From IMG/VR virus record IMGVR_UViG_2529292747_000018: 4,966 nt of DNA; one strand, given 5' to 3'. How positions within the stretch are numbered: position 1 is the stretch's first letter; the number at the start of each line of letters is the position of its first letter. The notes below the pieces were generated by a model. That model had not been told where the DNA came from. It saw nothing but the letters and a program-made list of their open reading frames with translations, and made no database searches. The position numbers and the translations under genes are program-made. Of the stretch, positions 320 through 4,375 are shown in pieces. Origin of the DNA: a virus. Its lineage: Duplodnaviria > Heunggongvirae > Uroviricota > Caudoviricetes.

Positions 320-691
320 ATGCTCATAGATTTGGTTTTACCTTACCCGCCGACGGTGAACACCTACTGGCGACGTCGTGGCAGCACATATTTTGTATCA
401 AAAGCCGGTGAGCGTTATCGCCGGGCTGTGGCGCTTATTGTTCGCCAGCAGCGGCTGAAATTAAGCCTGTCCGGACGGCTGGCAATAAAAATTATTGCAG
501 AACCACCGGATAAGCGCCGCCGTGACCTGGACAACATTCTGAAAGCACCGCTGGATGCGCTGACGCATGCGGAAGTGCTCATTGATGACGAGCAGTTTGA
601 TGAAATCAATATTGTGCGCGGTCAGCCTGTGCCAGGTGGACGGCTGGGCGTGAAGATTTACGAAATCAGAGGTGGTAACGATGGCGCGTGA
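320..691 (+). CDS. rusA: RusA-family Holliday junction resolvase (crossover junction endodeoxyribonuclease)
   Basis: 123-aa ORF with GAGG Shine-Dalgarno 6 nt upstream. Contains RRRDLDN with the conserved catalytic Asp residues of RusA, plus LPxPP...N.Y.R N-terminal and GGRL C-terminal features. Sits in the nin region just before Q. Confidence 0.9.
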
Positions 692-1052
692 TATCCAGAT
701 GGTTCTTGAGCGATGGGGGGCATGGGCAGCAAATAATCATGAAGATGTAACATGGCCCTCGATAGCTGCTGGTTTTAAAGGATTAATCCCGACTAAAGTG
801 AAATCACGTCCTAAGTGTTCTGATGATGACGCCATGATAATTTGTGGTTGTATGGCACGATTAAACAAGAATAATCAGTATTTGCACGATTTGTTGGTGG
901 ATTATTACGTAGGTGGAATGACATTTATGGCTCTTGCACGTAAGCATAGATGTTCTGATGGGCTTATTGGTAAAAGGCTTTATAAAGCGGAAGGTATTAT
1001 TGAAGGAATGCTTATGGCTCTGAATGTCCGGTTAGATATGGATATGCGGTAG
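681..1052 (+). CDS. Q: Late-gene antiterminator Q, phage 21/82-type (QuuD-like)
   Basis: Protein [25 protein letters not shown]...CGCMARL...[10 protein letters not shown] matches the recalled N-terminus of DLP12 QuuD and 82-type Q proteins. ATG at 681 is preferred over the GTG at 672 given by the ORF track. Overlaps the rusA stop by 11 nt. Stop TAG at 1050-1052. Confidence 0.85.
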
Positions 1053-1143
1053 GGATATATAGTGATGAGGGTTATGTTTTCTGTGTTTATAATTAACATG
1101 TTTATTTTTTGATGGTCATGTATTGTGGAAGGTAGATAAAATG

Positions 1144-1172
1144 TTGCCTGGTGAATTGAAAATATTGATAAT
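1144..1172 (+). promoter_or_regulatory. Candidate sigma70 promoter for the CPBP gene (TTGCCT-N17-GATAAT)
   Basis: -35-like TTGCCT at 1144-1149, 17-nt spacer, -10-like GATAAT at 1167-1172, in an AT-rich stretch about 30 nt upstream of the CPBP Shine-Dalgarno. Pattern match only. Could alternatively be part of the Q-dependent late promoter. Confidence 0.3.
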
Positions 1173-1203
1173 CAATCTTCATCATTAAATAAAAGGAGTG
1201 CTT

Positions 1204-2022
1204 ATGTGGATTGTGTTAGTACTGTCACTGTCAACTCTCAGTTGGCATAAGGTAGTGGCTTTTTCATTGTTGACGGTGTCTGTTGTCCTGGCTGTGCTTA
1301 ATGATATTATTGATTGGTCGGTGTTATTTTTTGTTGCTACAATCGTTTTTTTTATTATTTTGAAGTTCAACTGGAAATATAACGCCTGGGCTAAATCTAT
1401 ATATGAAGTTGGCATAGTTTTATCAGCCATAGCATTATTTTTCCATCTATGGCCAGGGTTTCACAATCCTGTAGTGCTAAATTCTGTTACTGTTGGCCCT
1501 CAAAGTACTCCCTATACAATGTATTTTAATTTTGATAAAGCGCTGGTGCCATTTTTGTTAGTCCTGTGTACATCTTCTTTGTTTAAAAAAGAAGTAAAAT
1601 CAGAAGTGTCTTTGTGGAAGTGGGGGGCTCTGTCGCTCTCTGTTCCTCTTATCCTGTTTTTGGCTGTTTTTTTTGGTGGATTAAAGCCAGAGATTCATTT
1701 TCCTGAGTGGTTGCCAGAGTTTATATTGGCTAATTTGTTTTTTGTGTCTCTGGCAGAGGAATCATTATTTAGAGGGTATATTCAATCACGGCTATCAGAA
1801 GTAACGTCTCCATTGGTTGCATTAATTGTGGCGGCTTTGTTGTTTGGTTTTTATCACTATTCAGGTGGTGCTTTACTTGTATTATTTGCCACGTTATCTG
1901 GTGTTGTGTATGGATTGTCATGGATGTGGAGTGGGCGTTTGTGGGTTGCCACCCTTTTCCATTTTGGTTTGAATCTGTGTCACTTGTTATTCTTTACCTA
2001 TCCATTTTTAAAACATAATTGA
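1204..2022 (+). CDS. CPBP-family (CAAX protease / Abi, PF02517-like) polytopic membrane protein on an AT-rich moron
   Basis: 272 aa from ATG 1204, with AAGGAG Shine-Dalgarno at 1193-1198 and 5-nt spacing (the ORF-track GTG at 1198 lies inside the Shine-Dalgarno). Very hydrophobic with multiple predicted TM segments. Three CPBP motifs in canonical order and spacing: EExxxR (EESLFR, 1756-1773), FxxxH (FGFYH, 1843-1857), HxxxN (HFGLN, 1960-1974). Visibly AT-rich relative to the flanking phage genes. Confidence 0.8.
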   Translation: MWIVLVLSLSTLSWHKVVAFSLLTVSVVLAVLNDIIDWSVLFFVATIVFFIILKFNWKYNAWAKSIYEVGIVLSAIALFFHLWPGFHNPVVLNSVTVGPQSTPYTMYFNFDKALVPFLLVLCTSSLFKKEVKSEVSLWKWGALSLSVPLILFLAVFFGGLKPEIHFPEWLPEFILANLFFVSLAEESLFRGYIQSRLSEVTSPLVALIVAALLFGFYHYSGGALLVLFATLSGVVYGLSWMWSGRLWVATLFHFGLNLCHLLFFTYPFLKHN

Positions 2023-2074
2023 TTTTTTCTATGGTTTTAAATTTATAAGACTGAAAAATAGCAGGACGTGACAT

Positions 2075-2116
2075 TTGCATGAAAAATATGCACGGCAAAG
2101 CATTTACGTACGTAAA
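2075..2116 (+). promoter_or_regulatory. Promoter-like region with a perfect 14-bp palindrome TTTACGTACGTAAA (2103-2116); candidate late promoter or operator
   Basis: TTGCAT at 2075-2080 with a weak -10-like AAGCAT 17 nt downstream. Alternative TTTACG-N16-TATGCT at 2103-2130. The palindrome is perfect and overlaps these elements. An intrinsic terminator follows 50-75 nt downstream. Exact promoter position is uncertain. Confidence 0.25.
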
Positions 2117-2163: not shown

Positions 2164-2185
2164 CCCGCCTCTGAGCGGGTTTTTT
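2164..2185 (+). terminator. Intrinsic terminator-like hairpin (CCCGC-CTCTGA-GCGGG) followed by T6
   Basis: 5-bp all-GC stem at 2164-2168 and 2175-2179, 6-nt loop, then TTTTTT at 2180-2185. Lies downstream of the CPBP gene and the promoter-like region. Confidence 0.5.
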
Positions 2186-2308: not shown

Positions 2309-2671
2309 ATGCTGAAACAGCAGGATATGACAGAAACCGCCAGAGTTGTGTTTGATGAATTAAGCGTCACCGAACCGGCGACGGTCGGGGAGATTGCGCA
2401 GAATACGTACCTTTCACGCGAGCGCTGCCAGTTAATACTGACCCAGCTGGTTATGCGGGTCTGGCAGACTATCAGTTCGGTTGTTACAGACGCCTTCAGT
2501 CCTGAAGGCTTTTTTATTTGTGGTAAATGGGCGGCTGGTGGGTGTAAGGGGCACCCACCAGCCATCTGCTCATGCGTTGGGTTCACAAGCAAACCTCAGG
2601 CCCACTGCTTTGCGCAAAAGCAGAATGAGCCTATCAGAGACAGGCTTAATGATCCATGCTTAATACTGTAA
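2309..2671 (+). CDS. Hypothetical small protein; N-terminal ~60 aa plausibly coding, C-terminal half doubtful
   Basis: 120-aa ORF with a weak ribosome-binding site. The N-terminal part (TARVVFDELSVTEPATVGEIAQNTYLSRERCQLILTQL) looks like a small helical or HTH-like protein. The rest is translated through a textbook intrinsic terminator (2492-2519) and a perfect 12-bp hairpin (2533-2563), which argues against genuine coding. Confidence 0.25.
   Translation: MLKQQDMTETARVVFDELSVTEPATVGEIAQNTYLSRERCQLILTQLVMRVWQTISSVVTDAFSPEGFFICGKWAAGGCKGHPPAICSCVGFTSKPQAHCFAQKQNEPIRDRLNDPCLIL
2492..2519 (+). terminator. Strong intrinsic terminator (GCCTTCA-GTCC-TGAAGGC followed by TTTTTTATTT)
   Basis: Perfect 7-bp stem at 2492-2498 and 2503-2509, 4-nt loop, then a T-run at 2510-2519. 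Candidate for the Q-antiterminated late terminator tR' or an attenuator upstream of the methyltransferase. Confidence 0.6.
2533..2563. repeat. Perfect 12-bp inverted repeat GGCTGGTGGGTG / CACCCACCAGCC with 7-nt spacer
   Basis: Arms at 2533-2544 and 2552-2563 are exact reverse complements. No flanking U-run on either strand, so it is not a classical terminator. Stable RNA hairpin or protein-binding site. Confidence 0.6.
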
Positions 2672-3378
2672 AAATATCCAGTTGTGAGTTAATCAACGCC
2701 GACTGCCTGGAATTTATGCGGTCGTTACCCGAAAATTCTGTTGACCTGATAGTCACGGACCCGCCGTACTTCAAAGTGAAACCCGAGGGCTGGGATAACC
2801 AGTGGGCGGGTGATGAAGATTACCTGAAGTGGCTGGACCAGTGTCTTGCGCAGTTCTGGCGGGTGCTGAAACCTGCCGGAAGTCTTTACCTGTTCTGTGG
2901 CCATCGTCTGGCATCTGACACCGAAATCATGATGCGTGAGCGGTTTAACGTGCTGAACCATATCATCTGGGCAAAGCCGTCCGGACGCTGGAACGGGTGC
3001 AACAAGGAAAGCCTGCGGGCGTATTTCCCCGCCACAGAGCGCATTCTGTTCGCAGAGCATTATCAGGGGCCGTATCGTCCGAAAGATGCCGGGTATGAGG
3101 CGAAGGGTAGGACACTGAAACAGCATGTGATGGCCCCGCTGATTGCTTACTTTCGTGATGCGCGCGCTGTCCTGGGGATAACGGCAAAACAGATTGCAGA
3201 TGCCACAGGAAAGAAAAACATGGTGTCGCACTGGTTCAGTGCCGGTCAGTGGCAGCTGCCGAACGAAAGCGATTATCTGAAATTACAGGCACTGTTTGCC
3301 CGGGTGGCAGAAGAGAAGCATCAGCGGGGTGAACTGGAAAGCCCCACCACCAGCTGGTGGATACGTATGCCTCTCTGA
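2656..3378 (+). CDS. DNA methyltransferase (PF01555-like, beta-class N6-adenine/N4-cytosine), N-terminal fragment with DPPY motif; frame-split from the downstream part
   Basis: N-terminus LINADCLEFMRSLPENSVDLIVTDPPY carries catalytic motif IV (DPPY) in the arrangement typical of phage and ParB-linked amino-methyltransferases. The ORF ends at TGA 3376-3378 while the family's SAM-binding motif lies in the next ORF in another frame. Confidence 0.8.
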   Translation: MLNTVKISSCELINADCLEFMRSLPENSVDLIVTDPPYFKVKPEGWDNQWAGDEDYLKWLDQCLAQFWRVLKPAGSLYLFCGHRLASDTEIMMRERFNVLNHIIWAKPSGRWNGCNKESLRAYFPATERILFAEHYQGPYRPKDAGYEAKGRTLKQHVMAPLIAYFRDARAVLGITAKQIADATGKKNMVSHWFSAGQWQLPNESDYLKLQALFARVAEEKHQRGELESPTTSWWIRMPL

Positions 3379-3713
3379 ACCGACAGTATGCGGAGCTGCA
3401 GAGTGAATATAAGCATCTGCGGCGGTATTTCGGTGTGACGGTGCAGGTGCCGTACACCGATGTGTGGACGTATAAACCGGTGCAGTACTATCCAGGGAAA
3501 CATCCGTGCGAAAAACCGGCAGAAATGTTGCAGCAGATAATCAGCGCAAGCAGTCGTCCGGGAGACCTGGTTGCAGATTTCTTCATGGGGTCGGGGTCGA
3601 CAGTGAAAGCAGCGATGGCGCTGGGACGTCGTGCAACTGGCGTTGAACTGGAGACTGAACGTTTTGAGCAGACGGTGCGGGAAGTACAGGATTTAATCAT
3701 TCGTAACGGATGA
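3357..3713 (+). CDS. DNA methyltransferase C-terminal fragment (HPxxKP and FxGSGST SAM-binding motif I), same gene as 2656-3378 in a different frame
   Basis: Contains KHPCEKP and DFFMGSGSTVKAAMALGRR, the canonical C-terminal PF01555 signatures. The reading frame is open upstream of the annotated GTG start back to 3333 and overlaps the end of the N-terminal fragment, implying a single gene interrupted by a 1-nt indel or slip. Confidence 0.75.
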   Translation: MDTYASLNRQYAELQSEYKHLRRYFGVTVQVPYTDVWTYKPVQYYPGKHPCEKPAEMLQQIISASSRPGDLVADFFMGSGSTVKAAMALGRRATGVELETERFEQTVREVQDLIIRNG

Positions 3714-3753: not shown

Positions 3754-3829
3754 GGCCCTTTAGCTCAGCGGTGAGAGCGAGCGACTCATAATCGCCAGGT
3801 CGCTGGTTCAAATCCAGCAAGGGCCACCA
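3754..3829 (+). tRNA. tRNA-Ile2 (anticodon CAU, lysidine-type, AUA-decoding), ileX/ileZ-like
   Basis: 76 nt with cloverleaf: acceptor GGCCCTT/AAGGGCC, D-arm GCTC/GAGC, anticodon loop CTCATAA, T-arm GCTGG-TTCAAAT-CCAGC, 3' ACCA. Near-identical in layout to recalled E. coli ileX. The CAU anticodon could formally be Met, but similarity to ileX favours Ile2. Confidence 0.85.
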
Positions 3830-3830
3830 A

Positions 3831-3896
3831 CCGCCACTAGCTCATCAGGAAAGAACGTCACCCTGTGCGAGATTCGGAGTCCCCGGTGGCGGTCCA
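3831..3896 (+). other. Degenerate tRNA-like remnant (possible decayed argN-like tRNA)
   Basis: Perfect 7-bp acceptor-like pairing CCGCCAC (3831-3837) with GTGGCGG (3886-3892), followed by T-CCA, plus a D-arm-like TAGCTCA start and a T-loop-like TTCGGAGTCC. No foldable anticodon arm and only 66 nt long. Confidence 0.3.
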
Positions 3897-3909
3897 TTAT
3901 CGGTATTCT

Positions 3910-3986
3910 GCGTTGTTAGCTCAGCCGGACAGAGCAATTGCCTTCTAAGCAATCGGTCACTGGTCCGAATCCAGTACAACGCGCCA
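3910..3986 (+). tRNA. tRNA-Arg (anticodon UCU, AGA-decoding), argO/argU-like
   Basis: 77 nt: acceptor GCGTTGT/ACAACGC (perfect), D-arm GCTC/GAGC, anticodon stem ATTGC/GCAAT with loop CTTCTAA, T-arm ACTGG-TCCGAAT-CCAGT, discriminator G plus CCA. T-loop reads TCC instead of the usual TTC. Confidence 0.8.
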
Positions 3987-4171
3987 CACCACACTTATCT
4001 GCCCTGACTCTCTTTTGCGGGCTTTTTATTACAGGAAAGACACCGGACAGTGAAATGTTAAATGCCTCACAATTCAGGCAGTTGAATGTTGCCTGACATG
4101 CTGAGCGTTTGTTAAAAAAATTTCGCATGGTGAATCCCCCTGTGCGGAGGGGCAATCAGCAACCAGGTATA

Positions 4172-4180
4172 TGTGATAAT
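4172..4180 (+). promoter_or_regulatory. Candidate extended -10 promoter element (TGtGATAAT)
   Basis: TG at 4172-4173 one nt upstream of GATAAT (4175-4180). No convincing -35. Would start a transcript about 95 nt upstream of the terminator at 4259-4283. Confidence 0.2.
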
Positions 4181-4258
4181 CGCGGATTCAGGTGCTGATA
4201 CTGAATTCACCGGGAGGCACCCGGCACCATGCAAGAAAAAGAATGTGCATGCAAACAT

Positions 4259-4283
4259 GCCCCTCTCCGGAGGGGCATTTTTT
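4259..4283 (+). terminator. Intrinsic terminator (GCCCCTC-TCCG-GAGGGGC followed by ATTTTTT)
   Basis: Perfect 7-bp GC-rich stem at 4259-4265 and 4270-4276, 4-nt loop, then a T-run at 4278-4283. Confidence 0.6.
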
Positions 4284-4289
4284 ATGGGT

Positions 4290-4314
4290 AAAAAATGCCC
4301 GAATGGGTTCGGGC
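4290..4314 (-). terminator. Possible minus-strand intrinsic terminator (hairpin GCCCGAA-TGGG-TTCGGGC with adjacent A-run on + strand)
   Basis: Perfect 7-bp stem at 4297-4303 and 4308-4314. On the minus strand it is followed by a U-run (complement of A6 at 4290-4295). Together with 4259-4283 it forms a back-to-back terminator pair. No obvious minus-strand gene to terminate, so function is uncertain. Confidence 0.3.
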
Positions 4315-4375
4315 AATAGCATGAGATACTGATATTGTTGTGTTGTTATCGTGTGGATTTTAACCAGGGTTTATC

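Follow-up and report, generated by a model that had tools for sequence, protein, structure and literature searches.

A CPBP-family intramembrane protease gene behind the antiterminator gene Q of lambdoid prophages: cargo context, chromosomal relatives and a possible role in protecting the carrier cell

Background

What does a solitary gene for a polytopic membrane protease do directly behind the antiterminator gene Q of a lambdoid prophage, and is it the phage or the cell carrying it that gains from its presence? The question is raised by a stretch of 4966 bp from the IMG/VR virus record IMGVR_UViG_2529292747_000018 (Caudoviricetes), hereafter the window, which corresponds to the late-regulatory region of a lambdoid prophage and whose positions are counted from its first letter. 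A preliminary description, made from the letters of the window, had singled out an AT-rich block of about 1 kb (1053-2060) as an inserted moron with a single gene for a 272-aa CPBP-family protein, possibly linked to phage defence or bacteriocin immunity. Here, we show that this gene belongs to an exchangeable cassette, that it follows Q in every phage locus in which the upstream DNA could be read, and that it has syntenic relatives in bacterial chromosomes; we tentatively suggest that it serves the envelope of the lysogen.

Results and discussion

Identity and fold of the protein

The features on which the argument rests are the following.

681-1052, forward strand: antiterminator Q gene of the Q82 family (PF06530, E=8.7e-52; 'antiterminator Q family protein' in the PGAP annotation), with a GC (guanine plus cytosine) fraction of 0.42 and a GC3 (GC at third codon positions) of 0.36
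731-2145, no strand: low-GC block (GC 0.365, flanks 0.526 and 0.523), delimited by maximum-likelihood two-breakpoint segmentation and a sliding profile
1043-2102, forward strand: exchangeable cargo cassette, running from the final codons of Q through the spacer and the CPBP gene into 80 nt of DNA 3' of it
1065-1093, forward strand: promoter-like site P1, ATGAGG-17-TATAAT, with a perfect -10 and a poor -35 element
1144-1172, forward strand: promoter-like site P2, TTGCCT-17-GATAAT, from a promoter scan and conserved in loci L052 and L055
1193-1198, forward strand: Shine-Dalgarno sequence AAGGAG, 5 nt upstream of the ATG
1204-2022, forward strand: CPBP/Rce1-like intramembrane glutamic endopeptidase gene, ATG start, 272 aa (ECs_1085 / WP_000265265.1)
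1756-1773, forward strand: motif 1, EESLFR (E185, E186, R190), the three residues invariant in 116 homologues
1843-1857, forward strand: motif 2, FGFYH (F214, H218), both residues invariant in the 116 homologues
1960-1974, forward strand: motif 3, HFGLN (H253, N257), H253 invariant and N257 present in at least 90% of the 116
2164-2185, forward strand: first intrinsic-terminator-like site after Q, CCCGCctctgaGCGGG + T6, outside the swapped cassette and within a block (2103-2250) conserved in L002, L003 and L004

The start of Q is the ATG at 681 chosen by PGAP; a GTG at 672 is an alternative among the listed open reading frames (ORFs).

Profile, motifs and fold agree on the CPBP identity that had been proposed, and the ORF, the Shine-Dalgarno sequence and the three motifs lie exactly where they had been placed. 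The 272-aa protein matches PF02517 (Rce1-like) above threshold (70.6 bits against a cut-off of 22.4, E=1.4e-19) over profile positions 3-92 of 93, and the signatures EExxxR, FxxxH and HxxxN occur in order at residues 185-190, 214-218 and 253-257. The AlphaFold2 model, built on the alignment of the 116 homologues, reaches a predicted local distance difference test (pLDDT) of 94.7 and a predicted template modelling score (pTM) of 0.91; it consists of eight long helices and a highly conserved 55-residue loop (residues 80-136), in keeping with the polytopic topology expected from the sequence, and has an Rce1-like membrane fold with the motifs within transmembrane helices. In a fold comparison of the model, strong matches were limited to SpdC and Rce1, the former being the best, and it was this comparison alone that gave structural matches, a profile search of PDB sequences having returned nothing at E<=1. 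PHROG 13291, a family of unknown function, is matched end to end. NCBIfam equivalogs for myxosortase and ABC-permease/CPBP proteins were considered and rejected, the matches being partial and sub-threshold.

On the strength of profile and model, the protein can be assigned with high confidence to the CPBP (Rce1-like) intramembrane protease family. The full catalytic set of Glu185/Glu186, Arg190, His218, His253 and Asn257 is intact, and the protein is predicted to be enzymatically active.

Occurrence and previous annotation

O157:H7 genomes contain the 1008-bp block at 100% identity, and the CPBP gene occurs in 572 of 5426 complete Escherichia coli genomes, in 547 of them at 99% identity or more. 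The copy in prophage Sp4 of strain Sakai, ECs_1085, is annotated as a "phage CAAX amino terminal protease family protein", while the PGAP name is "CPBP family intramembrane glutamic endopeptidase"; further carriers are strains of O26, O111, O145, O103, O121 and O55:H7. The novelty ascribed to a solitary CPBP gene in this slot was therefore overstated, since the gene is annotated in Sakai Sp4 and in those 572 genomes, and in phages this slot is where it is always found. Literature searches retrieved no paper naming ECs1085 and no functional study of the gene or of a CPBP protein of lambdoid phages, and those on functions of phage-borne CPBP proteins, superinfection exclusion and anti-phage action included, returned nothing relevant. 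Thus, the annotation is already known; what is new is the strict linkage to Q, the absence from deposited phages and the syntenic chromosomal family as origin.

A 286,775-bp record labelled as a plasmid of strain EDL933 (NZ_CP124741.1) also carries the identical gene; it is probably a piece of chromosome or prophage that was misassembled or mislabelled.

The cargo cassette

The GC of 1053-2060 is 0.355 against 0.52 on either side, so that the low GC noticed in this stretch stands. The switch in composition, however, is not located at the Q stop as had been thought: the low-GC block delimited by segmentation takes in almost all of Q, which is thus part of it, and the GC3 values of the two genes are close (0.36 for Q, 0.35 for the CPBP gene).

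The boundaries of the exchanged unit emerge from a comparison of this junction among related prophages. In L002 and L003, whose Q DNA is 83-88% identical to that of the window, homology ends at 1042 and resumes at 2103, and an ORF6N-domain gene fills the position of the CPBP gene; the exchanged unit is therefore 1043-2102. In phages of the DLP12/mEp332 type (L018, L019; Q about 84% identical in protein), the porin gene nmpC lies there on the opposite strand. On these alignments, 1043-2102 is exchangeable cargo that occupies the Q-to-lysis slot of a lambdoid prophage. The intrinsic-terminator-like site at 2164-2185 is shared with the ORF6N phages (5338-5359 in L003).

As to the proposed moron, its exchangeable nature is upheld by the ORF6N and nmpC replacements, whereas an insertion into phage-typical DNA at the Q stop is not. 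As to the customary features of a moron, P2 is conserved but may be the late promoter pR', the first terminator lies outside the swapped segment, and the GC is 0.36 against 0.52 for most neighbours but low in the adjacent Q as well (0.42). The Q allele with its spacer occurs in 571 genomes and the CPBP gene in 572, a tight linkage, and in the one unsaturated comparison (window versus L004) the synonymous divergence (dS) is 0.104 for Q and 0.102 for the CPBP gene. Equal dS and same composition indicate that Q and the CPBP gene travel together.

Position behind Q

From IMG/VR and exact-protein look-ups, 47 phage-context loci were gathered, 46 of them with enough upstream DNA; many are near-identical, and they amount to about five lineages with CPBP identities of 95-100%, 83-85%, 62%, 59-60% and 55%. 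The CPBP gene directly follows Q in 46 of 46, this post-Q slot being the only one in which it was found in phage contexts. The upstream gene is a Q of the Q82 family in 43 loci (gaps of about 145-300 nt) and a lambda-type Q (PF03589) in the other three (about 292 nt), i.e. two unrelated Q families precede it. Downstream genes vary by lineage among the loci inspected (the window, L001, L004, L010, L012, L013, L014), and Q is the sole neighbour common to all 46; the linkage between the two genes has been kept through deep divergence. The view that the gene lacks a partner holds for the window, for the 46 phage loci and for the 80 chromosomal loci discussed below. In the Shigella flexneri prophage L012, about 2.2 kb 3' of the CPBP gene (6820-9027) are without any called gene.

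Such constancy could point to a late-lytic role, in which the CPBP gene would be the first of the Q-dependent late transcript, its product processing a lysis, membrane or virion protein or conditioning the membrane before the holin is triggered. The association with two unrelated Q families fits this explanation, and so does the lambda-type-Q lineage, where the CPBP gene alone is called between Q and the holin gene and lies behind a promoter-like site with a strong terminator, resembling a pR'-tR' pair; SpdC, the closest solved structure, is moreover the partner of a peptidoglycan hydrolase. Yet neither a DNA search (blastn, distant mode) nor tblastn retrieved a CPBP homologue from 50,697 deposited phage genomes, among which the Q family has 401 matches, so that the gene is known only from prophages. 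ORF6N or nmpC can take its place, a methylase gene, tRNAs and small RNAs (sRNAs) separate it from the lysis genes in the window, and its ORF remains intact in prophages with frameshifted neighbours. A late-lytic function is accordingly regarded as rather improbable.

The same facts bear on who benefits. Among prophage alleles dN/dS is 0.12-0.23, and the CPBP ORF is intact whereas two downstream genes of the window are frameshifted; together with the absence from deposited phages, this leads us to infer a benefit to the host cell rather than to phage growth. The conservation at 99% or more in 547 genomes, including O157, O26, O111, O145, O103 and O121, also counts for selection on the host side.

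Expression signals

The promoter-like site expected at 1144-1172 is present as a consensus match. The promoter scan returned 9 consensus sites against 5.3 +/- 2.2 expected in shuffles, and a match of this kind is weak evidence. In diverged alleles, 83-85% identical, P2 reads TTGTCA-17-GATAAT (L052) and TTGCCA-17-GATAAT (L055), i.e. it is conserved or improved; of the candidate promoters of the CPBP gene it is the best, and it could be pR' itself. The -10 element of P1 is kept as TATAGT/TATAAT in L052 and L055; longer Q alleles share homology with part of this stretch at their 3' end, and support for P1 is weak. The likeness of TATAAT at 1088-1093 to DLP12-type sequence was rejected as promoter evidence, as it overlaps the 3' coding end of those longer alleles.

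The spacer between Q and the CPBP gene is 151 nt in the window, and no terminator lies between Q and the ATG in the four Q82-type lineages examined (spacers of 122-151 nt). In L003, with its ORF6N gene, the Q stop is followed by a 10/12 promoter (TTGACC-18-TATATT) and, about 60-75 nt further on, by a terminator that precedes the cargo: a classic pR'-tR' pair. If P2 (or P1) is pR', then the CPBP gene lies in the leader of the late promoter and is transcribed without Q; otherwise P2 is a private promoter. The more specific proposition that in Q82-type prophages the gene sits in the pR' leader ahead of the terminator at 2164-2185, is expressed constitutively without Q and boosted by Q on induction, and acts as a single-gene exclusion or immunity factor that has spread through enterohaemorrhagic E. 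coli (EHEC), seems unlikely.

Chromosomal relatives and origin

Full-length homologues (270-276 aa, about 46-56% identity) are widespread in Enterobacterales and extend to Vibrio, Aeromonas, Pseudomonas, Burkholderia and enterohepatic Helicobacter. Synteny was sampled in 80 species-representative chromosomal loci (L064-L143). A modF-like ABC ATPase gene lies just upstream of the CPBP gene in 44 of them, and gpmA directly downstream in 30, followed by aroG, pnuC and nadA; in Serratia, galT rather than gpmA is the downstream neighbour, and in Pseudomonas aeruginosa (L016) the gene stands between gpmI and an M23 peptidase gene. The chromosomal copies are solitary, amid housekeeping genes and with no conserved partner, and their GC matches that of the host (Pseudomonas 0.71, Dickeya 0.57, Proteus 0.37, Helicobacter 0.34). 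Matched GC and the lack of a conserved partner make the family look like an old, self-sufficient chromosomal gene of Enterobacterales. No modF-linked chromosomal gene was seen in E. coli outside prophages. The phage copy (GC 0.38) is a captured relative of the modF-CPBP-gpmA gene, plausibly from a low-GC donor host.

Two side observations concern these chromosomal loci. A phosphoglycerate mutase gene adjoins the CPBP gene in two forms, as gpmA (dPGM) in many Enterobacterales and as gpmI (the non-homologous iPGM) in P. aeruginosa, which may be a coincidence. The Helicobacter copies (L073, L082, L124) are full-length and 49-51% identical, with the GC of 0.34 measured in L073, which suggests that the gene passed long ago between Enterobacterales and Helicobacter.

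The chromosomal setting invites another explanation of the phage gene, namely that the prophage supplies in trans an envelope protease of housekeeping type: its copy would do in E. coli the job of the modF-linked gene, maturing or turning over a conserved membrane or periplasmic protein, and the outcome would be an altered envelope physiology or altered surface properties rather than a specific immunity. Favourable to it are the recurrent modF-CPBP order and gpmA adjacency, the ameliorated GC in all hosts tested, the family-wide conservation of both the catalytic residues and the 55-aa loop, and the lack of a partner gene at the loci examined. It leaves unexplained, though, why phages retain the gene and why it constantly adjoins Q, and E. 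coli thrives without it. This explanation is on balance unlikely.

A possible role in the lysogen

The reading that we advance, as a possible and still tentative one, is that of an autonomous protease expressed in the lysogen and protecting the envelope of its carrier. One or more sigma-70 promoters in the 151-nt spacer would drive the gene; with such promoters and no terminator before the ATG, the protein would be made in the lysogen, and much more of it after Q-dependent late transcription. The conservation of P2 and the strength of the Shine-Dalgarno sequence also speak for expression. We hold this prediction from the promoter and terminator layout, production in the lysogen with a boost on induction, with moderate confidence. 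The product would reside in the inner membrane as an eight-helix protein acting alone as an intramembrane endopeptidase, its substrate being a membrane-embedded peptide or protein, either the host's own or met from outside. The carrier cell would thereby gain an envelope protected from a peptide toxin arriving from outside or from another phage, a step to which low confidence is attached. There is a precedent for protection of this kind, in that the CAAX-family protein McsI alone confers immunity to microcin S in E. coli (PMC3316575).

Several points weigh against the protective role. No bacteriocin structural or exporter gene lies near the CPBP gene in the window, in the 46 phage loci or in the 80 chromosomal ones, where the neighbours are modF, gpmA, aroG, pnuC and galT, and the link to bacteriocin immunity drawn earlier thus comes down to analogy. 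In a tblastn search of plasmids (E<=1e-3), no similarity to McsI-type genes occurred among the matches listed (30 of 40), the only E. coli match being the EDL933-labelled record with the identical gene. The relatives in chromosomes have the look of housekeeping genes inherited vertically, and a general role in the envelope accords with this better than immunity to a single toxin does. SpdC, the best structural match, is reported to act as a non-catalytic partner of a cell-wall hydrolase and not as a protease. The invariable post-Q position could instead reflect a late-lytic role, the promoters are consensus matches only, and the literature reports no activity, substrate or phenotype for ECs1085. 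Finally, PADLOC-DB v2 gave no match to a defence model at E<=0.1.

This last result bears most directly on the abortive infection (Abi) or other defence link of the preliminary description, which it fails to bear out. A dedicated anti-phage system would suit the Q-to-lysis slot of lambdoid prophages, a known cargo site, and a membrane protein could block the entry of DNA; but no partner gene accompanies the CPBP gene, and its chromosomal relatives lie amid housekeeping genes rather than in defence islands. The 'Abi' label of PF02517 is, besides, a legacy of annotation and is not known to stand for a tested phenotype. A dedicated defence system is thus considered very unlikely.

The protective reading, if true, would add another way in which cryptic prophages shape the gut fitness of EHEC, through protection against peptide toxins or phages, and would provide an entry point to a CPBP subfamily that is widespread in Gammaproteobacteria and still uncharacterised. 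The EHEC strains studied most carry the gene in a conserved prophage (Sp4 in Sakai), and strains of O26, O111, O145, O103 and O121 have it as well. The fixed post-Q position of the gene offers a simple system for studying how cargo is wired into late-promoter control. The present finding amounts to a correct annotation with new context added, not to a new kind of system.

Other features of the window

The remaining features of the window are listed below.

17-307: 3' end of a DUF968 gene
320-691: RusA gene
2309-2671: small TrmB-like ORF, frameshifted
2656-3713: N6/N4 DNA methyltransferase gene, frameshifted
within 3754-3986: tRNA-Met(CAT) and tRNA-Arg(TCT) genes
4096-4289, forward strand: sRNA STnc100 (Rfam, 157.6 bits)
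4290-4351, reverse strand: anti-GcvB sRNA AgvB (Rfam, 96.5 bits)
4499: start of a DUF1737/esterase gene

Compared with L003, whose homologues are intact, the TrmB-like ORF has a 1-nt frameshift near 2455 and the methyltransferase gene one near 3339-3345, due either to prophage decay or to sequencing error. Only two tRNA genes are found in the window as against three in Sakai Sp4 (ileZ, argN, argO), and the tRNA-Met(CAT) carries an ileZ-type tRNA-Ile annotation in Sakai. STnc100 and AgvB are placed between the tRNAs and the DUF1737/esterase gene, the site at which Stx phages carry stx; the window holds no stx gene. The only small ORF beside the CPBP gene that came into question as bacteriocin-like, a 41-aa TTG ORF (2075-2200), spans the terminator and was rejected.

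The window is a mosaic, with a junction at about 2555-2579: positions 1-2579 are 99.2% identical to an Sp4-like prophage, and the DNA 3' of about 2579 is 93-95% identical to another O157 prophage region. It is therefore not one known prophage, an identification that was rejected, the maximal coverage by any complete E. coli genome being 76%; the same arrangement recurs in the IMG/VR contigs L024, L025 and L029.

Comparison with known systems

The protein shares with the Rce1/CPBP superfamily (PF02517; MmRce1, 4CAD) an above-threshold profile match and the three motifs in order, and differs from Rce1 in the highly conserved 55-residue loop, which lies between helices 3 and 4 and is specific to the present family. 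To our knowledge, bacteria are without prenylated CAAX substrates, so that the substrate must differ from that of Rce1. From SpdC/LyrA of Staphylococcus aureus (6U0O, the SagB-SpdC complex), reported to be a scaffold for a glucosaminidase, it is set apart by an identity of 13%, by the retention of all catalytic residues and by the lack of an adjoining hydrolase partner gene.

McsI of plasmid pSYM1 and the Gram-positive 'Abi' bacteriocin-immunity proteins are of the same superfamily, and with McsI a single CAAX-family gene protects E. coli from a peptide toxin (PMC3316575); McsI, however, has 216 aa and is encoded beside its own microcin and export genes, none of which is found near the present gene.

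The nearest parallels in genomic context are the other cargoes of the Q-to-lysis region. The ORF6N phage L003 departs from the Q82-type CPBP phages in having both a promoter and a terminator ahead of its cargo, the latter phages having no terminator between Q and the gene. With this class of cargo as a whole (stx of Stx phages, the lc/nmpC porins of PA-2/DLP12, ORF6N) the CPBP gene has in common the slot, the presence or absence among related Q, the AT-rich composition and a promoter-like element of its own, while its product is a polytopic protease and not a toxin or a porin.
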